From: a virus | Taxonomy: Duplodnaviria > Heunggongvirae > Uroviricota > Caudoviricetes | Virus record (IMG/VR): IMGVR_UViG_2595698353_000001 | Coordinates: 78,564-142,563 of that record | Length of the DNA: 64,000 nucleotides | Strand: one strand, 5' to 3' | Shown here: piece by piece, positions 13,008 through 22,481 of the stretch | Numbering within the stretch: position 1 is the stretch's first letter | How the letters are laid out: each line of letters opens with the position of its first letter | Translations under genes and position numbers: made by a program | Notes under the pieces: generated by a model | What the model was told of the DNA's origin: nothing | The model's database searches: none | The model's input: the letters and a program-made list of their open reading frames with translations, nothing else

Positions 13008-13874
13008 GTGCCCGACATTACCACAGAACAGCCGCAGCGCAGTTGTAGCCGCACCGCCCTACCTGCACCGATCGTCGATCTGATCTCGCAGGGCATTCCG
13101 CTGAAGGAGTTCGACCGCAGTGGTCGCGTGGCCCCCGTTCTGATCTGGTGCGCAGTGCGCCGGACGGCGGCGTCGGCCCAGGCCAACGGGTGGACGCGGA
13201 TGCAGTGGTTCAACCACGTTGCGGCCGACACCAACATCCTGTTCTGGCAGCTCAAGGTGGGTAACCCGCGCAGGCCGAAGCCGCGCGAGCTGAAGAAGGT
13301 GTACCGGGACCTCGACAAGGCATGGGATGCCTCGGTGCGCTATCGGGCCAGCGAGGAACAGGCCGCACCGGCCACGGCCGCCGAGGTGTCGCGCCGCTCG
13401 AACGCCGTCACCCGCCTGGTGCAGCGGCACGCCGACCGGATGCAGCTCTCGTACACCGAGCGCCAGGTCCTCGCGTTCGCGGCTGCCGAGACCCGCCGGT
13501 ACGGCTGGCTCAACGTCACGCTGCCCGCACGCCGGGTGGCCCAGGCGATCGGACGCAGCGCGATGGCCGCGCACAAGGTGCTCCGGCGGCTCGCTGAGCA
13601 GGGCCTTCTCGTGCAGGTGGCGCGCGGACGCGCCGGGACCACGGTGAACGGCGGATCTGGCTCGGCGGCCATCTATCAGATCCCCGTCGACATCGCGACG
13701 TTCACTCGCGAAGACGGTGCCGAGCAACCCCACAGTGGGCCTGTAGGCTCGCTACATGCGCGTATCGGAACAGGACACGACCCAGTGGCTGCTGCAGCAG
13801 GCGATGCTCAAGTCGGGCGGCGAGCCGGAGCAGATGTTCCTGGAGATGCTCGAGACCCTGGCGGGCACGGCTGA
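13008..13874 (+). CDS. winged-helix DNA-binding protein (288-aa ORF; C-terminal about 50 aa likely non-functional read-through)
   Basis: RBS AAAGGATC then GTG. Motif RRVAQAIGRSAMAAHKVLRRLAEQGLLVQV is MarR-like wHTH. Last 118 nt overlap the next gene in another frame. Confidence 0.5.
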   Translation: MPDITTEQPQRSCSRTALPAPIVDLISQGIPLKEFDRSGRVAPVLIWCAVRRTAASAQANGWTRMQWFNHVAADTNILFWQLKVGNPRRPKPRELKKVYRDLDKAWDASVRYRASEEQAAPATAAEVSRRSNAVTRLVQRHADRMQLSYTERQVLAFAAAETRRYGWLNVTLPARRVAQAIGRSAMAAHKVLRRLAEQGLLVQVARGRAGTTVNGGSGSAAIYQIPVDIATFTREDGAEQPHSGPVGSLHARIGTGHDPVAAAAGDAQVGRRAGADVPGDARDPGGHG

Positions 13875-14148
13875 GACCCGTATCGACCAGGGCGAGGACG
13901 TCGGCACCGCGCTGCGGGTAGCCATCGCCGAGCTGGAGGCCAACGAGGGCGCGGTGCTGCCCTCGCGGATCATCGGCCAGTTCCTGGTCCTGTTCGTGAC
14001 TCACTGGCAGTACGGCGACACCCTCGTCGACGAGCTGACGCTGATCGAGCGCCGGATCGCGACCGAGCAGTACGCAGAAAAGCTATTGGAACTCCAAAAC
14101 GCGGCTCGAGCCGATGCAACTGCTGAGGGAGACCCCTCGGACACCTAA
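13756..14148 (+). CDS. hypothetical protein (130 aa), possibly leaderless
   Basis: Good protein-like translation. A -10-like TAGGCT ends 6 nt before the ATG, inside a CCACAG..CTGTAGG operator-like site. Confidence 0.45.
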   Translation: MRVSEQDTTQWLLQQAMLKSGGEPEQMFLEMLETLAGTAETRIDQGEDVGTALRVAIAELEANEGAVLPSRIIGQFLVLFVTHWQYGDTLVDELTLIERRIATEQYAEKLLELQNAARADATAEGDPSDT

Positions 14149-14931: not shown

Positions 14932-15636
14932 ATGACCGCGAACGAGATCGTCGAAGCCGCCACCGCTGACATCCAGAAGTACGTCAACGCGGCGCTGTCG
15001 ACCGTCCTCGCCTCGATCGAGGCTGAAGAGCGCGACACCGAGGCCGAGGCCAAGTCGACCATCGCCAGCCGCAAGAAGGCGCTGGCCAAGGCTGTCAAGA
15101 GCCTCGACGTCGACACCCTGGAGCGGGTCGAGAAGACGTTCGTCGACTACGTGCCGAACCTGGCCACGATCGACCCCGAGCTCGTCGAGGAGCTGAACGA
15201 GGAGCAGCAGCTCGCGATCGGCGAGGAGTACGTCCGCTACCAGCAGGCGAAGGAGTTCCTCGAGGTCCGCCACGCGGCCCTGAAGGAGCTCGTCTTCGGT
15301 CACGTCGACGCGACGGTCGGCGCGCACGAGAACGGCGAGATCAAGCTGCCGCAGATCGGCAAGGTCCTCCGCCGCGAGGGCGCGGGCCGCACCGATCCGA
15401 TCGTCGACACGGCGGTGCTGCGCCGCAGCCTGCCGACCGACGTGGTGGGCGAGATCTTCGAGACCGTCGAGATCCCGGAGCAGCTCATCCCGGCCCACAC
15501 CGAGGAGGTCTTCTCCGAGGAGAACCTCATCGCCGTGGCCGCCCGTCGTCCCGAGATCTTCGCGGTCATCCGCGAGGCGCTCATCCCGGGCAAGCAGAAG
15601 ACCGAAAAGTTCGTGGTCCGCGACCTCAACGAGTGA
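14932..15636 (+). CDS. hypothetical protein (234 aa, acidic/coiled-coil-like)
   Basis: RBS GAAGGAG. Confidence 0.65.
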   Translation: MTANEIVEAATADIQKYVNAALSTVLASIEAEERDTEAEAKSTIASRKKALAKAVKSLDVDTLERVEKTFVDYVPNLATIDPELVEELNEEQQLAIGEEYVRYQQAKEFLEVRHAALKELVFGHVDATVGAHENGEIKLPQIGKVLRREGAGRTDPIVDTAVLRRSLPTDVVGEIFETVEIPEQLIPAHTEEVFSEENLIAVAARRPEIFAVIREALIPGKQKTEKFVVRDLNE

Positions 15637-15694
15637 GGCGCGGGCCGACGCCCCGGCGCTCACCGCGCCGGGGCCGAGGTGAAAGGAAGGCCAG

Positions 15695-16000
15695 ATGATG
15701 ACTGACGAAAAGGCAGACCAGGGCCTGCTCGCGGCTGCGGGCATCGTCAAGAAGTACTCGACCAGCGAGGTCGCGAAGTTCTTCAACCGCACCGACCAGT
15801 GGGTGTACTGGGTCCTCCGTGAGGGCGTGCTGGACAAGAACGGGAAGCGCCTCGAGGCCGAGCGTGTCGGCAAGGCCAACCGCCGTCGCTTCACCCTGGA
15901 CCTGATCCAGGAGATGCTCGAATCGCTGTACAACCGGGGCACGATCTCCGAAGAGGAGGCCATCGCGGTCCAGGCCAAGATCAACGCCGCTCGGGGGTAG
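15695..16000 (+). CDS. helix-turn-helix DNA-binding protein (MerR/excisionase-like)
   Basis: Motif STSEVAKFFNRTDQWVYWVLREG. Confidence 0.5.
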   Translation: MMTDEKADQGLLAAAGIVKKYSTSEVAKFFNRTDQWVYWVLREGVLDKNGKRLEAERVGKANRRRFTLDLIQEMLESLYNRGTISEEEAIAVQAKINAARG

Positions 16001-16002
16001 GC

Positions 16003-16947
16003 GTGGACCGAACCCCGCTGCGCGCGGACGTCGAGCGTGGGGCCGACCACATGGTGATCGTCGACGGCAATAACGTCGTCATGAGGTCCATCTTCGGGAT
16101 GGCCAACGCTCACCTGGTCGGCCCCAACGGTCTGCCCACCGGCGGGATCTTCGGGACGATCGGCGTCTTCCGTTCGCTCGTCGCGCGGCTGCGGCCGACC
16201 CACATGCTCTGGACCTTCGACCAGGGCAAGTCGGCGAAGCGGCTGGCGATGTACCCCGAATACAAGGCGAACCGTGCCCGGGTCTACAACCCGGAGCAGC
16301 CGGGCCGCTTCCACGATGTCAATGCGGTCAAGCTCGGCACCCTCGACGGCGTCAAGTCCTTCTTCGGGTTCTGCGGCGTGCCGTACTTCTCGATGGAGGG
16401 CGTCGAGGCTGATGACCTGATTGCCGAGGCCGCGCTGCGGCTCACCGGCAAGATGCCGGTCACCATCGTCTCCGCCGACCACGATCTGCGTCAGCTGTGT
16501 ACCGAGGACGGCCTCGTCCAGGTGCTCAAGCCGCGCGCCGGTGCCAACGACGAGGACGTGATGTACGACCACGCCCGCGTCGTCGCCGAGTACGGCCTGC
16601 CGCCTCGTGTCATGCCCGAGGTGTGGGCCATCCAGGGCGACACCAGCGACAACATCAAGGGCGTGCAGGGCCTCGGGCCGAAGCGCGCCACCAAGATCAT
16701 CCAGGCGTACGGCAGCCTCGCGGCGGCGATCGAGAAGGATCCCCGGATCCGCGAGAACCGCGAGCTCGTCGAGCGCAACCTCAAGCTGATCTCGCTCCTC
16801 GACGACCCCGAGCAGCGGCTGCCGGAGGGCCTCGAGCTCTGCCTGCTGCCCCGCGACATCCTGGACTACCCCGGCCTGCTCGCGTACTGCGACTACTGGG
16901 GCTTCGATTCACTCACGCACGAGATGATGGGAGGGCGGCTCTGGTGA
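16003..16947 (+). CDS. 5'-3' exonuclease / flap endonuclease (Pol I N-terminal-domain family)
   Basis: VDGNNVVMRS is PIN-like. EADDLIA is the acidic cluster. AIQGDTSDNIKGVQGLGPKRATKII is an H3TH motif. Confidence 0.8.
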   Translation: MDRTPLRADVERGADHMVIVDGNNVVMRSIFGMANAHLVGPNGLPTGGIFGTIGVFRSLVARLRPTHMLWTFDQGKSAKRLAMYPEYKANRARVYNPEQPGRFHDVNAVKLGTLDGVKSFFGFCGVPYFSMEGVEADDLIAEAALRLTGKMPVTIVSADHDLRQLCTEDGLVQVLKPRAGANDEDVMYDHARVVAEYGLPPRVMPEVWAIQGDTSDNIKGVQGLGPKRATKIIQAYGSLAAAIEKDPRIRENRELVERNLKLISLLDDPEQRLPEGLELCLLPRDILDYPGLLAYCDYWGFDSLTHEMMGGRLW

Positions 16948-17279
16948 CCGACAATCCGGCGCTGTCCATCAACGTCCCGCCGGACGACTTGATGGACATG
17001 TTGATGGACATGACGATCAGCGAGACCGAGAAGGCGATCCGCGAGCGCGTGCGCGCGGCCGTCGACGACCAGCTGGGCCAGCTGATCAAGCAGACCGTCG
17101 CCCGCAAGTTCGGTAGCCCGGCCACGCGCGTGGACCTCGCGATGTCGATCGAGAAGGCCGTCGACGCGGTCGCCACCTCGGTCCGCCGGTTCCCCGGGGC
17201 CGCGAACGACGGCATGCTCGAGTCCGCCGTCGCGTCCGCCATCATGAACGTCTTCCAGAAGGAGCGCAGCGCCCAGTGA
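16944..17279 (+). CDS. hypothetical protein (111 aa)
   Basis: GTG overlaps the upstream stop (GTGA). In frame with track ORF 16497-17279. Confidence 0.55.
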   Translation: MTDNPALSINVPPDDLMDMLMDMTISETEKAIRERVRAAVDDQLGQLIKQTVARKFGSPATRVDLAMSIEKAVDAVATSVRRFPGAANDGMLESAVASAIMNVFQKERSAQ

Positions 17280-18472
17280 CCGAGCCCCTCGAGTTCGACT
17301 TCGACCAGGTCGTCCGCCGGTTCAAGGATGCGGTCCCCCGCGTCCCGGACAGCGCGCGCTTCCCGATCACCGAGGCCAAGGGCACCGGCCTGATGGACTT
17401 CGCCGACGCCCGCTGGCTGACCGACCTCAACGCCGAGGCCGTCACGCTCGGCCACAACAACGACGGCGTCCGGCACGGCATCAGCCAGCAGATGCTGCAC
17501 CTGTGGTTCTCCGACCCCGACGCGTACCTCCAGCGGATCCAGGTCGAGTACCCGGCCGAGCTGGTCAAGCAGTTCGAGCAGGAGACCGGCCGCCACGGCC
17601 AGCAGCAGGTGCTGCCGCTGTCCTCCCTGGACGAGGCGTACGCGCTCGCGGTGCACCTGACCGAGGGCGACTACATGCAGGGCGACGCGATGATCGGGCT
17701 CGTCAACATGGGGCGGCCGACACCGCTGCTCACCCGCACCGCCCGGCTGGTGCCCGGCGGCGGATCCCCGGCGAAGCAGATCGAGTCCAACAAGATCGGC
17801 GCGATCGTCGTCCGGCTGGTCGCCGACAGCGGCGAGGCCGTCGACCACGACTTCCTCGCCGAGCTGTACCGGGAGGCCCTCGAGCGCAACATCTCGGTGA
17901 TCTTCGACGAGTCGACGACCGCGTTCGGCCGCACCGGCGGCCTGGTCCACCAGTCCCTCGCCGACTTCGCCGGGCTCGAGCCGTTCCTGACCATCCTCGG
18001 GCCGTCTGGCGGCGGCGGGATGCCGTACGCGGCGCTGATCGGCCACCGCGACGCCTTCAACCTGATGCGGCACCGCCGCAACCCGACCGCGCTCAACCCG
18101 ATGTCGATGGCGGCGGCAATGGCCGTCCTCAACCAGATGGGCGATGGGCTGTACGAGAACGTCCGCAGGCGCGGCGAGCAGCTGCGCACCGAGGCGGCCC
18201 AGATCGTCAGCCAGCACCGCTGGATCGAGAGCCTGCGGGGAGAAGGCCTGTTGCTCGGGCTGCGGATCTCGCTCTTCAGCCATGCCCGCCGCCTGGTCGA
18301 GGTCGCCCGCGAGCAGGGCCTGCATCTGGTCATCGCCGAGGACGACATCGGCACCGTCCGGCTCTGGCCGCACCTGACCGTCTCCGAGAAGGAGGTCGGC
18401 GAGATCGTCGACGCTCTCTACGAGGCGTGCCTCGTCGTCGGCACCGAGCTGCATCCGCTCACCGGCACGTAG
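17276..18472 (+). CDS. class-III aminotransferase-like protein (catalytic Lys apparently replaced)
   Basis: IFDESTTAFGRTG matches the AT-III DEVQTGFGRTG signature. The expected TLAKALGGG (PLP-Lys) aligns to TILGPSGGGG, which has no Lys. Confidence 0.65.
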   Translation: MTEPLEFDFDQVVRRFKDAVPRVPDSARFPITEAKGTGLMDFADARWLTDLNAEAVTLGHNNDGVRHGISQQMLHLWFSDPDAYLQRIQVEYPAELVKQFEQETGRHGQQQVLPLSSLDEAYALAVHLTEGDYMQGDAMIGLVNMGRPTPLLTRTARLVPGGGSPAKQIESNKIGAIVVRLVADSGEAVDHDFLAELYREALERNISVIFDESTTAFGRTGGLVHQSLADFAGLEPFLTILGPSGGGGMPYAALIGHRDAFNLMRHRRNPTALNPMSMAAAMAVLNQMGDGLYENVRRRGEQLRTEAAQIVSQHRWIESLRGEGLLLGLRISLFSHARRLVEVAREQGLHLVIAEDDIGTVRLWPHLTVSEKEVGEIVDALYEACLVVGTELHPLTGT

Positions 18473-18546
18473 TGCCTCACCCTCCACGGGCCGCCGGTAA
18501 ATGGTGACCCGTGGAGTGCGGGCCACCCATAGGGCAGTCTCAGGGG

Positions 18547-18909: not shown

Positions 18910-19320
18910 GTGACCCACTTCGACGAGATGGATCCCGTCGAGCAGATGATCGGCAAGCCGGTCACGAAGATGACCGGCGACGAGCTGATCTCGTACATCA
19001 AGACCTACATGCAGGCCATGCACGGCGTCGATCTCGGCATCGACGGGGTGAAGGAGCGGTCTGTCATGACGGCGCTCCGGCGCATCTACAAGGACGACGC
19101 CGGGCGCATCGTGAAGTGGGTGATGACCAAGCGCAGCGGCCGAGACCAGAAGGACGAGCTGGTCACCTACTTCTCGTTCCAGCGAGCCGACAAGTGGTGG
19201 CTCGACAAGATCCACATCGAGATGCAGGTCCACCAGAACCGCTCTCGAGAGCTGGCGGCAGCGCCGAAGCTCACTCCTCTGTCCGCTCTACTGCGAGGTC
19301 CCCGCCGTGCCCAGTCCTGA
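18910..19320 (+). CDS. hypothetical protein (136 aa)
   Basis: RBS GGAGGGG then GTG. Confidence 0.55.
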   Translation: MTHFDEMDPVEQMIGKPVTKMTGDELISYIKTYMQAMHGVDLGIDGVKERSVMTALRRIYKDDAGRIVKWVMTKRSGRDQKDELVTYFSFQRADKWWLDKIHIEMQVHQNRSRELAAAPKLTPLSALLRGPRRAQS

Positions 19321-20101
19321 GCTCCTCCGCACGAAGTACATCCCTGATGAGGACGCCCGCCAGCTGTATCAGGCGCACCCGAAGCTCGGCAGCTCGCCGG
19401 ACAAGTACTGCCCGACCTGCCAGAAGACCGGCTCGTACTACTGGGGCGGCGTCGCCAACCAGTGCGACTGCGAGCTCCAGCTGCAGCTGCACAAGCACTA
19501 CCTCTACTCCGGCATCGGGGTGCTCTACCAGCGGCTGGACTGGGCCGACTACCGGGGCGACCCCACCGTGATCGACGCGATCCAGCGCTACCTCGGCCGC
19601 CACGGCGACTACATCACGCGCGGCACCGGCATGCTGTTCACCGGCAGCGTCGGCATCGGCAAGACCCTCTCGGCCACGCTGCTGCTCAAGGACCTGATCA
19701 AGCTCGGGTACCGGGGCTACAGCACCACGTTCGCGAACATGGTCGAGATGTTCACCGCCGGATGGCGCAGCGCCGAGGACAAGCGCCAGTTCCAGAAGAG
19801 GATCCTGCGCGCCGACGTGCTGCTGCTCGACGACCTCGGCCGCGAGTTCCGCAACTCGAGCAAGCTGTCGGAGACCACGTTCGACGACGTCCTCCGCGCC
19901 CGCACGCAGGCCGGACGGCCGACGCTGATCACCACCAACATGGATGTGCCGGAGCTGCTCGAGGGCTACGGCTCCGGCGCGCTGTCGCTGCTGTCCGAGA
20001 ACTCGTTCGTCCACCACTTCCAGGGTGTCGACTTCCGGCCGCAGGCGAATCAGCGCCTGCTGGACGAGATCGACGCCGGTATCGTCCGACCCATCTTCTG
20101 A
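19307..20101 (+). CDS. DnaC/IstB-like AAA+ helicase loader with N-terminal zinc finger
   Basis: N-terminal CPTCQ...CDC is a zinc finger. GSVGIGKT is Walker A. VLLLDDLG is Walker B. Confidence 0.8.
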   Translation: MPSPELLRTKYIPDEDARQLYQAHPKLGSSPDKYCPTCQKTGSYYWGGVANQCDCELQLQLHKHYLYSGIGVLYQRLDWADYRGDPTVIDAIQRYLGRHGDYITRGTGMLFTGSVGIGKTLSATLLLKDLIKLGYRGYSTTFANMVEMFTAGWRSAEDKRQFQKRILRADVLLLDDLGREFRNSSKLSETTFDDVLRARTQAGRPTLITTNMDVPELLEGYGSGALSLLSENSFVHHFQGVDFRPQANQRLLDEIDAGIVRPIF

Positions 20102-20109
20102 GGAGCCCT

Positions 20110-21375
20110 GTGTCGTTTGCCAGCGAGCGGGCGCTGATCGCCAAGCTCACCGAAGAGAAGAACGTCCGCCTCTGTTGGGACCGGGGTCTACGGGCCGAGG
20201 TCTTCGAGGATCCCCAGTGCCGCATGGTGTTCGAGTTCATCATGCAGTACTGGCTGGACAACGAGATGAACCTCGCGCCGACGGCGCGCATCGTCCACAC
20301 CCAGTTCCAGAGCCAGGACCTCACGCCCAGCGACGAGTCGATCCGCTGGCTGATCGAGGACCTGCAGAAGCGGTTCTCGACGAACAACGCGCAGGCGATC
20401 ATGCTGCGCGCGGGCGGTATGGCCAACGACGACCCGCACGGCGCGCTGGACCTCCTCGCCGCCGAGGGCTGGGCCGCCCGGCAGATCGTCAGCCCGCGCA
20501 GCAACCGGATGAACATGGCCGACAGCGTCGCCGAGCGCCGCCGCCGGTACGCCGAGCGCCAGCAGAACGGCGCGCGCGGCGTCACGTTCGGCTTCCCGGA
20601 GGTCGACGACGTCACCAACGGCCTGCTGCCCGGCGAGCTCGCGGCCGTCGCCGGTGTGGCGAAGACCGGCAAGTCGTTCTTCCTCTGCAACGCCGCCGTC
20701 AAGGCCCGCCGACTCGGGTACACGCCGTACATCGCGACGATGGAGCAGTCGGTCATCGAGTTCGGCGAGCGCGCCGACGCCCTGTGGTCCGGCGTGAGCT
20801 ACCAGCGGCTCCAGGAGGCCAAGCTGCACCCCGAGGAGCTGATGCAGCTGCACGCGGCCCAGGACGAGCTCGCGGCGACCGGCGGCCTGCACATCGAGCA
20901 GCCGGAGATGGGCCAGCGGACCCCGCAGCACCTCGCGAACCGCGCCCGGCAGCTCGGCTGCGACTTCCTGATCGTCGACCAGCTCTCGTTCATGGAGGCC
21001 CGGCCCGGATCGAATCGATTCGAGCGCGTCGGCGACATGCACGGCTCGATCATCCACGACCTGAAGAACGAGATTAACCGCGACGACACCGGCAAGCTCC
21101 CCTGCCTGCTGGCCGTCCAGTTCAACCGTGACGCGGCGAAGGACACCAAGGGCGGCGGCCTGCACAACTTCGCGAACACCGCCGACATCGAGCGCGCCGT
21201 CGATATCGCTTACGGCCTCTCCCGCACCGACGAGATGCGCGCGAACAACTCGATGAAGCTGTCGATCCTCGGCAACCGGCGCGGCGAGATCGGCGACTGG
21301 CTGCTCGCCTGGTACCTGTCCGAGCGCGCCGAGCTCCGGGTCCGGGAGCGCATGGAGCGGGACGTCGCCGCCTGA
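20110..21375 (+). CDS. DnaB-like replicative helicase
   Basis: GVAKTGKSFFLCNAA is Walker A. DFLIVDQLSFM is Walker B. GTG start after AGGAG. Confidence 0.85.
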   Translation: MSFASERALIAKLTEEKNVRLCWDRGLRAEVFEDPQCRMVFEFIMQYWLDNEMNLAPTARIVHTQFQSQDLTPSDESIRWLIEDLQKRFSTNNAQAIMLRAGGMANDDPHGALDLLAAEGWAARQIVSPRSNRMNMADSVAERRRRYAERQQNGARGVTFGFPEVDDVTNGLLPGELAAVAGVAKTGKSFFLCNAAVKARRLGYTPYIATMEQSVIEFGERADALWSGVSYQRLQEAKLHPEELMQLHAAQDELAATGGLHIEQPEMGQRTPQHLANRARQLGCDFLIVDQLSFMEARPGSNRFERVGDMHGSIIHDLKNEINRDDTGKLPCLLAVQFNRDAAKDTKGGGLHNFANTADIERAVDIAYGLSRTDEMRANNSMKLSILGNRRGEIGDWLLAWYLSERAELRVRERMERDVAA

Positions 21376-22481
21376 TGTATGGGTTCGCGAAGACCGTCGA
21401 CTACACGCTCCTCGAGGAGTACCGGCGGCGCATCGATGTCGAGGCCGTCCTCGACCACTACGGGGCCGAGAACTGCTTCCAGATCGGCAACGAGATCCAG
21501 CACAGCTGCCTCGTTGACCGGGTTGACCCGCACCACTCCAACGGCGACAAGAACCCTTCTGCGAGAGCGAATCTCGACGAGAAGCTGTACGTCTGCTACT
21601 CGTACGGCGGCGGGGACATCTTCTGGCTGATCCAGAAGATGGAGGGCGCGGACAGTGTCGCCGACATCCTCCCGGTCGTCGCTCAGTTCCTCGGCGAGTC
21701 CACGCTCGACACCGAGAGCTTCCTCACCGAGCTGAAGAAGTTCTTCGAGTCCGACGAGGCCGCCGTCGAGCCGCCGACGTACCACCCGCGCGTGCTCAAG
21801 CGCTGGCAGATGATCCACCCGTACCTGTACGAGGACCGGGGCATCGCGCCGTGGGCGTGCGAGGAACTGGGGCTGGGCTACGACCCCGAGGCCGTCCGCA
21901 TCGTCTTCCCGCACTGGGCCAAGGTGCGCGGTGAGACCAAGCTCGTCGGCTGGCAGCGGCGCTCGCTGACCGACCCGCGCTGGCCGGTGACGCCGCCGGA
22001 GTCCCGCGTCGACCTCGACGGCAACGTCCACCTGCGGCCGCCGCCGAAGTACAAGAACTCGCCCGGCCTGCCGAAGAACGAGACCGTCTACAACCTCGAG
22101 CGGCTGCGCGAGCGCGGCGTGAAGCGGATCTGCGTCGTCGAGTCGCCGATGTCGGTGGCCAAGGCGCTCACGCTCTCCGACCGCGAGGACCCGACCGACA
22201 TCCTCGGCGCGTTCGTCTCGACGTTCGGTGCGAAGGTCGGCAAGGAGCAGATCCGACTGCTCGCCGACTTCAACGAGGTCCTGGTGTGGATGGACGACGA
22301 CGTGCCGGGCCGGAAGGCCTCGCGGATCCTGCTCGAGGGGCTGTACCGGCAGACCAACGTCCTGCACATCGAGCCCGACACGGGCATGGACCCTGCGGAC
22401 TACTGGACGCGGGATGAGATCATGGCACCGATCGGCCGGGCCGAGCCCGCCGTGCTGACCATGTCGAGATGGAGGCCGTGA
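21375..22481 (+). CDS. DnaG-like DNA primase (zinc-binding plus TOPRIM)
   Basis: Zn-binding CLVDRVDPHHSNGDKNPSA. TOPRIM acidic motifs VCVVESPMS and WMDDDVPGRKA. ATG overlaps the upstream stop. Confidence 0.8.
   Translation: MYGFAKTVDYTLLEEYRRRIDVEAVLDHYGAENCFQIGNEIQHSCLVDRVDPHHSNGDKNPSARANLDEKLYVCYSYGGGDIFWLIQKMEGADSVADILPVVAQFLGESTLDTESFLTELKKFFESDEAAVEPPTYHPRVLKRWQMIHPYLYEDRGIAPWACEELGLGYDPEAVRIVFPHWAKVRGETKLVGWQRRSLTDPRWPVTPPESRVDLDGNVHLRPPPKYKNSPGLPKNETVYNLERLRERGVKRICVVESPMSVAKALTLSDREDPTDILGAFVSTFGAKVGKEQIRLLADFNEVLVWMDDDVPGRKASRILLEGLYRQTNVLHIEPDTGMDPADYWTRDEIMAPIGRAEPAVLTMSRWRP

Follow-up and report, generated by a model that had tools for sequence, protein, structure and literature searches.

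The 64,000-nucleotide stretch analyzed here (the window) is the terminal part of the Rhodococcus phage E3 genome (NC_021347 / HM114277, 142,563 bp), to which it is 100% identical, with window position 16000 corresponding to position 94563 of the E3 record. Our analysis concerns one open reading frame (ORF) at 17276-18472 on the + strand, which starts with GTG and encodes a 398-residue protein identical to E3 gp145 (YP_008061190), a protein that already carries the database label "aminotransferase" in the E3 record. An original prediction made from the sequence had described this gene as class-III aminotransferase-like and apparently lacking the lysine that binds pyridoxal 5'-phosphate (PLP), hence either a pseudoenzyme or a divergent active enzyme if its alignment was wrong. 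We find that gp145 has the class-III fold without this lysine, that the same is true of the actinophage family to which it belongs, and that the protein is probably a conserved pseudoenzyme. The gene and its two diagnostic motifs lie as follows:

17276..18472, + strand: gp145, class-III aminotransferase-fold protein without the PLP-binding lysine (predicted pseudo-aminotransferase), identified from the ORF, PF00202, PHROG 2736, AlphaFold2 (AF2), Foldseek and G+C content at third codon positions (GC3)
17900..17941, + strand: IFDESTTAFGRTGG motif, residues 209-222, in which Asp211, Glu212 and G-R-x-G are kept and the Gln of DEVQ is Thr214
17990..18025, + strand: TILGPSGGGGMP, residues 239-250, with Pro243 (18002-18004) at the Schiff-base lysine position of (A/G)K(A/G)xGGGxP

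The + frame is the coding frame for gp145, as shown by a GC3 of 0.97 against 0.76 for the long antisense ORF at 16913-18526, and by third codon positions, which hold 33 of the 61 nucleotide differences between the gene and its 93%-identical relative in the phage assembly L007.

The similarity of gp145 to class-III aminotransferases is far beyond chance. PF00202 matches the protein with E = 2.4e-23 and 82.9 bits (cut-off 30.5) in an alignment limited to residues 170-383, and sequence matches in the PDB are led by ArgD (8ht2, E = 4e-14). The AF2 model has a mean predicted local distance difference test (pLDDT) of 90.4 and a predicted template modeling score of 0.88, and its lower-confidence stretches include the N-terminus and remodelled loops at about 131-140, 221-240 and 261-270. 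Foldseek aligns this model with GabT, M. tuberculosis ArgD and OAT at E ~1e-25, a template modeling (TM) score of ~0.8 and 18-23% identity, and by sequence and fold together gp145 belongs to PF00202 as a homologous superfamily. Structure prediction and profile search, which were among the checks that the original prediction had proposed, both recovered the class-III similarity. Compared with ArgD, GabT and OAT, gp145 has the same fold, collinear over the full length, shares the motifs D-E...G-F-G-R-T-G, G-G-G-x-P, G-x-G-L and P-P-L, and finds its best sequence matches among acetylornithine aminotransferases; it differs from them in lacking the lysine, the phosphate loop, the stacking residue, the Gln and the Thr, and its N-terminal half barely fits the profile. 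It does not qualify as any named NCBIfam aminotransferase: all 25 of the NCBIfam models listed score it far under their cut-offs, short by ~270 bits or more, the best (NF002325) giving 99.3 bits against a 372-bit cut-off over the C-terminal half only. The protein matches PHROG 2736 with E = 9e-130, and a more reduced member of this family, Myrna gp183, also yields a compact AF2 model (pLDDT 95.6).

The fold-type-I signature that the original prediction had noted is present as IFDESTTAFGRTGG. The segment where the lysine should stand reads T-I-L-G-P-S-G-G-G-G, as had been claimed, within TILGPSGGGGMP, and Pro243 falls opposite the Schiff-base lysine in every alignment made (three pairwise HMMER, two MAFFT, one hmmalign and one BLASTP, the last against a Lys-containing phage relative). 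There are six lysines in gp145, at residues 17, 35, 98, 167, 173 and 372, none of them closer to position 243 than 70 residues upstream or 129 downstream; since residues 174-371 contain no lysine, a shifted register cannot supply one. The family has no conserved lysine column either (a lysine occurs in any one column in at most 12 of 30 family sequences), and this, with the lysine positions in gp145, rules out a register shift or migrated lysine and disposes of the divergent active enzyme that a wrong alignment might have hidden. A sequencing error in E3 is also ruled out, as L007, an independent 142-kb assembly, has the same Pro and the whole family is without the lysine.

The losses are not confined to the lysine. 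We compared residues in 30 family members and 12 genuine enzymes, whose cofactor roles are established knowledge from the structures of GabT, OAT and ArgD. The SG(S/A)EA phosphate loop reads S-L-D-E-A in gp145 and is variable in the rest of the family, as are the EPIQGE segment (VRLVADSGE in gp145) and the Gln of DEVQ (Thr214). The F/Y-H-G stacking segment is replaced in gp145 and deleted in most other members, and the Thr of TFGGNP is absent both from gp145 (P-T-A-L-N-P) and from the rest. The Asp of DEVQ is kept as Asp211 and is Asn in Skog, Pupper, P0104, P0105 and P0116, while the Arg of VRGxGL is kept as Arg321, is lost in most of the family, and is Gln in the 93%-identical relative (R321Q). 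Among the features expected of an enzyme, gp145 therefore lacks the Schiff-base lysine of (A/G)-K-(A/G)-x-G-G-G-x-P, the S/T-G-(S/A/T)-E-A loop and T-F-G-G-N-P Thr that contact the PLP phosphate, the stacking aromatic (F/Y-H-G) and the Gln that hydrogen-bonds O3' (D-E-V-Q), and has the pyridine-nitrogen-binding Asp (D of D-E-x-Q). The two-domain architecture of fold type I is preserved, and the buried core motifs are kept (D/N-E-S/T-x-T-G-F-G-R-x-G, G-G-x-x-G-G-G-F-P, G-x-G-L and T-P-P-L-x-x-S), and E212, R219 and G221 are invariant in family and genuine enzymes alike. With the lysine, phosphate loop, stacking residue, Gln and Thr all gone, it is the pseudoenzyme alternative of the original prediction that stands. 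An internal aldimine with PLP would be impossible and most cofactor contacts are lost, from which we predict that gp145 does not transaminate.

The same state extends across a large phage family. A tblastn search with Myrna gp183 returned 232 phage records, mostly of cluster-C mycobacteriophages (Bxz1, I3, Myrna) and including ScoobyDoobyDoo, the Gordonia phages Skog and Pupper, Phrappuccino and E3; the annotated records among those listed call the gene "aminotransferase". The lysine column holds G, P, T or S in all 30 family sequences first examined and K in all 12 genuine references. An exhaustive profile search covered 1.84 billion representative proteins, and its matches were tabulated at 10 checked sites. 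The top matches form about 60 Lys-less clusters at 50% identity, in which the lysine position is occupied by G, P, T, S, A, H, E or R; under about 225 bits, ordinary enzymes with 10/10 sites intact make up nearly all matches, apart from a small number of additional Lys-less sequences. Other viral contigs encode class-III aminotransferases of the usual, fully equipped kind, so the apparently dead state is specific to the Lys-less clade.

E3 falls well within this clade. Over its full length gp145 scores 188 bits with a clade hidden Markov model (HMM) built without it; with an HMM made from 150 genuine enzymes it scores 128 bits, in two pieces, and both halves of the protein prefer the clade HMM. 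A neighbor-joining tree recovers a core of 53 Lys-less sequences as monophyletic (87% bootstrap) with E3 inside, on a sub-branch with P0001 and P0223 (97%), or with P0001, P0223 and P0225 (86-97%). Separate acquisition of a host ArgD by E3, which the 33-37% identity of the C-terminal half of gp145 to metagenomic ArgD-like proteins had suggested, is ruled out by the clade HMM scores and the tree. Structural neighbours in BFVD have TM scores of 0.74-0.84, the nearest viral ones being the Pupper and cluster-C proteins. By full-length profile match, shared residue losses and genomic slot, gp145 thus belongs to the actinobacteriophage Lys-less family PHROG 2736 (Myrna gp183, Bxz1 gp188, I3 gp208, Skog gp205, Pupper gp144 and Phrappuccino gp106), from the rest of which it differs in having Pro instead of Gly at the lysine position, a longer large domain, and the retained Arg321. 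The family spans at least six phage genera at 25-30% identity with the ORF intact and 16 invariant columns, and its lengths range from 305 to 400 residues, with large-domain deletions that differ in size by lineage.

The gene is also under selection. From one closely related pair, E3 versus L007, we obtained a dN/dS of 0.38 for gp145, indicating purifying selection. Conserved family positions are mostly those of genuine enzymes, and few are specific to the clade (Y92, G242/G243, W224, Q313/F314 and D379), a pattern which suggests selection on the fold and its interfaces as opposed to a new catalytic centre. What defines a pseudoenzyme is accordingly found in gp145, namely conservation and purifying selection after loss of the catalytic residues, its inactivity being predicted.

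The genes surrounding gp145 are arranged as follows:

14932..16000, + strand: gp141 (DUF7242) and gp142 (DUF7229, helix-turn-helix (HTH)-like), conserved members of the upstream cassette by profile matches and occurrence in other loci
16003..16947, + strand: gp143, FEN-type 5'-3' exonuclease (PF02739 and PF01367), found upstream in the Lys-containing loci L011 and L032 as well
16947..17279, + strand: gp144, 110 residues, with no family match; present in E3 and absent from the 93% relative L007
18511..18894, + strand: gp146, Hfq-like (PF23874, E = 2e-40), the downstream neighbour in most related phages, not all
18910..19320, + strand: gp147, about 130 residues, with no Pfam family and only a weak DUF3853/HTH-like match; phmmer matches in other loci
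19307..22481, + strand: gp148 DnaC-like loader, gp149 DnaB-like helicase and gp150 DnaG-like primase, part of the block that includes gp145

The GTG start of gp145 overlaps the gp144 stop (GTGA), an AGGAG lies ~11 nt upstream, and no terminator-like sites were found on the + strand between window positions 13500 and 23000; the overlap and the absence of such sites place gp145 within a single tightly packed block. Its order is Tad4-like, gp141, gp142, gp143, gp144, gp145, gp146, gp147, DnaC, DnaB, DnaG, which agrees with the placement given in the original prediction, between a FEN-like exonuclease and the DnaC/DnaB/DnaG genes, with the addition that three small genes (gp144, gp146 and gp147) intervene.

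Several of these neighbours have features of their own. The longest ORF for gp143, from a GTG at 16003, encodes 314 residues, the length called in L007, and the start in the E3 record lies 48 nt downstream (16051). In L007 the exonuclease stop overlaps the start of the aminotransferase-like gene and gp144 is absent, indicating an indel in a variable slot. The 130-residue ORF at 13756-14148 (+ strand), hypothetical in E3 (M176_gp146), matches PF25186, 'Type I Thoeris inhibitor Tad4', with E = 4.6e-26, and a Tad4 gene directly follows a reverse-strand helicase also in L007, L010, L012/13, L014 and the P0105 contig. The dN/dS of gp141 (14932-15636, + strand) between E3 and L007 is 0.82, by far the maximum of the block, though the family is kept in all related phages. 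The Hfq-like gp146 is 76.6% identical between E3 and L007 with a dS of 0.33, where flanking genes are 93-99% identical with a dS of ~0.1, and it looks like a local mosaic or a fast-evolving gene.

The aminotransferase-like gene occupies the same slot in E3, L007, Myrna, Bxz1, Skog, Pupper, Phrappuccino, L010, L012/13, L014 and the P0105 contig. These hosts of the gene are large actinobacteriophage myoviruses, and the slot belongs to their operon for replication and early DNA metabolism. The common order upstream is a reverse-strand helicase, (Tad4), DUF7242, DUF7229 and the variable slot, and downstream it is (Phage_Hfq), a gp147-like gene of ~130 residues, DnaC, DnaB, DnaG, a DnaJ-like gene, a single-stranded DNA-binding protein and a DnaE-type polymerase. 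In E3-like phages, as upstream of gp145, a FEN exonuclease fills the variable slot, and in cluster C an AAA_28 "thymidylate kinase" does so; because this kinase adjoins the aminotransferase-like gene only in cluster C, we ruled it out as the functional partner. The Hfq-like gene does not adjoin the aminotransferase-like gene in Skog, Pupper and Phrappuccino, which rules it out as a universal partner. A gp147-like match lies between the aminotransferase-like gene and DnaC in every locus compared but L014. This last locus, a 163-kb related phage contig whose aminotransferase-like protein has Glu at the lysine position, carries Lsr2-like and Mom-like (PF25680) genes in the module (L014:4942-5295 and L014:13027-13593).

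Two contigs of related metagenomic phages carry what appear to be intact counterparts of gp145 in this slot, each within a cassette of biosynthetic genes:

L011:2177-7147 and L032:5078-9980: LuxE-LuxC-aminotransferase (Lys intact)-DCD-like cassettes, DCD denoting dCTP deaminase

The L011 protein, P0198, is the best Lys-containing match to the clade profile at 344 bits, the next full-length Lys-containing protein reaching at most 247, and it carries the clade-like motif TILGKAGGGGLPF. Both P0198 and its L032 counterpart P0226 have 10/10 checked catalytic and cofactor sites intact and match ArgD, LysJ and putrescine-aminotransferase models over their full length at 254-279 bits. In L011 an overlapping gene string encodes a FEN exonuclease, a weak radical-SAM-like protein, a LuxE-like protein (PF04443, E = 1e-17), a LuxC-like protein (PF05893, E = 7e-9), the aminotransferase P0198 and a dCTP-deaminase/dUTPase-like protein, and it continues into the same replication module with Phage_Hfq, gp147-like, DnaC, DnaB and DnaG. 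On a divergent second contig, L032 (129 kb, GCA_026622885.1), P0226 is surrounded in the same way, with a LuxE-like protein 39% identical to that of L011 and, upstream of the cassette, amidoligase, methyltransferase and acetyltransferase genes. P0198 and P0226 therefore share with gp145 a slot after the FEN exonuclease and before Phage_Hfq, gp147-like and DnaC/DnaB/DnaG, and differ from it in their intact cofactor sites and in their LuxE-like, LuxC-like and dCTP-deaminase-like flanks, all without counterpart in E3. Homologs or remnants of LuxE, LuxC, the radical-SAM-like protein or DCD, gp144 included, were not found in E3 or the other fetched loci by phmmer at E<=1e-3. A search of IMG/VR for close relatives of P0198 returned only distant ordinary Lys-containing aminotransferases of other subfamilies, and a contig scan with P0226 only distant cellular enzymes. 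Four further proteins (P0201, P0209, P0212 and P0213) are partly degraded, with SG, H, E and D kept and Lys changed to Gly; they have the exonuclease-aminotransferase-Hfq arrangement of E3 and branch at the base of the Lys-less clade.

The ArgD/LysJ/putrescine-aminotransferase group transaminates omega-aldehydes. By analogy with ArgB/ArgC/ArgD, we infer that LuxE-type adenylation and LuxC-type reduction would make such an aldehyde from a carboxylate, and the LuxE-LuxC-aminotransferase-DCD cassette is thus a candidate phage pathway from carboxylate through aldehyde to amine. A co-mention of LuxC, LuxE and an aminotransferase in the literature (PMC4875605) concerns flagellin glycan islands and is uninformative here.

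The original prediction had also linked gp145 to DNA hypermodification, a process in which phage PLP enzymes do take part. Pseudomonas phage M6 gp52 and Salmonella phage ViI gp226 are PLP-dependent decarboxylases of thymidine hypermodification with catalytic lysines K36 and K92; they bind PLP, with absorbance at 410-425 nm, are not described as aminotransferases, co-occur with genes for 5-hydroxymethyldeoxyuridine (5-hmdU) DNA kinase and aGPT-Pplase, and, in the case of ViI gp226, have been modelled on tryptophan synthase beta (PMC8989533). They resemble gp145 in being phage-encoded members of PLP-enzyme superfamilies near DNA-metabolism genes. Neither the catalytic lysine nor the partner genes that mark these enzymes accompany gp145: no 5-hmdU DNA kinase or aGPT-Pplase annotation was found in positions 1-45000 and 82563-142563 of the E3 record, where not all hypothetical proteins were profile-searched. 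We found no evidence for a role of gp145 in DNA hypermodification in E3, and that part of the claim is not supported; the LuxE/LuxC/dCTP-deaminase-like cassettes lend the idea of a biosynthetic pathway some support for the ancestor alone.

Taken together, we consider that gp145 is probably a conserved pseudoenzyme left from a LuxE-LuxC-aminotransferase pathway and kept for a non-catalytic role. Its ancestor would have been an active ArgD-like enzyme in a cassette with a LuxE-like acyl-adenylating enzyme, a LuxC-like reductase and a dCTP-deaminase-like enzyme. E3-type phages would then have shed the partner enzymes and the active site and retained the aminotransferase-fold protein. Today gp145 would most likely serve as a (homo)dimeric scaffold or as a ligand- or partner-binding subunit acting with its co-transcribed neighbours. 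The residue losses, the retained fold, the family-wide conservation and synteny, the purifying selection and the intact relatives in the slot are observed; the direction of this change and the non-catalytic role we infer.

Several observations weigh against this account. Bootstrap support is only 57% for the neighbor-joining split uniting the Lys-less sequences and the P0198 group, so that a common origin of the P0198-type proteins and the Lys-less clade depends mainly on synteny and profile score; the gene in the cassette may instead reflect replacement in situ by a fresh aminotransferase gene. Constraint on gp145 is weaker than on the replication genes, with a dN/dS of 0.38 in this single close pair against 0.04 for DnaC, 0.10 for DnaB and 0.13 for DnaG. 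Finally, the former cofactor pocket is still lined by conserved residues, Asp211, Glu212 and a Gly-rich loop, which could mean that a small ligand is bound and that there is room for unconventional chemistry.

Both subunits of a class-III aminotransferase, an obligate dimer, contribute to its active sites. This opens the first alternative, that gp145 is a decoy or poison subunit which forms heterodimers with a class-III enzyme of the actinobacterial host (for instance ArgD, GabT, Lat or BioA), inactivating or redirecting it and so reshaping amino-acid or polyamine metabolism of the host at an early stage of infection. In its favour, gp145 keeps the fold and many positions that genuine enzymes conserve (D50, G59-H60, E212, R219, G221, G322, G324, P365 and L367), and the residues needed only for catalysis are lost. 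Dead paralogs that oligomerise with active ones, and so work by binding instead of catalysis, are an established mode of pseudoenzyme action. An example is the dead paralog of trypanosomatid deoxyhypusine synthase (PMC3663545), which resembles gp145 in being conserved under selection and related to an oligomeric enzyme, with the catalytic lysine missing. In contrast to gp145, that protein has another fold and another pathway, and gp145 has no active partner subunit encoded by the phage. The heterodimer interface is moreover uncertain, given only 18-23% identity to cellular enzymes and the deletion of large-domain segments in many members, and a decoy would leave the fixed position in the replication operon unexplained, so that we regard this alternative as unlikely.

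Lower still we place the possibility that gp145 is a functionless relic, a decaying remnant of the LuxE-LuxC-aminotransferase pathway that still awaits deletion. The decay of all catalytic features, the dN/dS above that of the neighbouring replication genes and the lineage-specific large-domain deletions (305-400 residues) are what a relic would leave. However, full-length ORFs persist in >230 phage genomes, in ~60 clusters at 50% identity, across at least six genera and with 16 invariant columns, the AF2 models are very confident and compact, and dN/dS is well below 1. Phage genomes quickly shed useless DNA, and we therefore think a relic improbable.

Least probable of the three is a lysine-independent enzyme that would hold PMP (pyridoxamine 5'-phosphate), PLP or another ligand non-covalently in a remodelled pocket, perhaps acting on a nucleotide or DNA: fold type I PMP-dependent sugar dehydratases do have histidine in place of the lysine, conservation in the family is highest at Asp211, Glu212 and the two loops that surround the former cofactor site (G-F-G-R-x-G and G-G-G-x-P), and relatives in the same slot sit in a biosynthetic cassette with a dCTP-deaminase-like gene, but the Gly, Pro, Thr, Ser, Ala, His, Glu or Arg found at the lysine position leaves no conserved catalytic substitute, the phosphate loop, stacking aromatic, Gln and Thr are lost or deleted, Asp is Asn in Skog, Pupper and others, the conserved residues specific to the clade are few and mostly structural, and the LuxE, LuxC and DCD partners are absent from E3.

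The gene and its "aminotransferase" label were already known. Our literature search found nothing relevant on this type of phage gene or on a Lys-less clade of class-III aminotransferases, the original E3 genome paper lying outside the search. Three points appear to be new: that the actinophage "aminotransferase" family as a whole is, as read from its residues, catalytically dead; that it has a fixed position in the replication module; and that intact relatives occur in a LuxE-LuxC-aminotransferase-DCD cassette. More than 230 actinobacteriophage genomes have been deposited with this label, and as no family member seems capable of PLP-lysine chemistry on sequence evidence, the annotation is misleading and propagates; for gp145 and its family, the label would denote ancestry, not function.

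That a putatively dead enzyme of 1.2 kb holds a fixed slot in the replication operon across at least six genera points to a non-catalytic function. As a more specific and tentative proposal, which we think possible though doubtful as a whole, the family may be the first case of pseudo-aminotransferases taken up as non-catalytic, possibly essential accessory factors of the phage replication or early DNA-metabolism machine, perhaps with the gp147-like protein, the Hfq-like protein or DnaC/DnaB, and may be the fossil of a hitherto unrecognised pathway of LuxE-like activation, LuxC-like reduction and ArgD-like transamination, adjacent to a dCTP-deaminase-like enzyme, which would make an amine-bearing nucleotide or DNA modification in those relatives that retain it. 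Bxz1, Myrna and E3 are model phages that make the family tractable. The intact relatives mark a candidate biosynthetic pathway, possibly for nucleotide or DNA modification, and together with their apparently dead relatives they would form a natural before-and-after series for the change from enzyme to pseudoenzyme.

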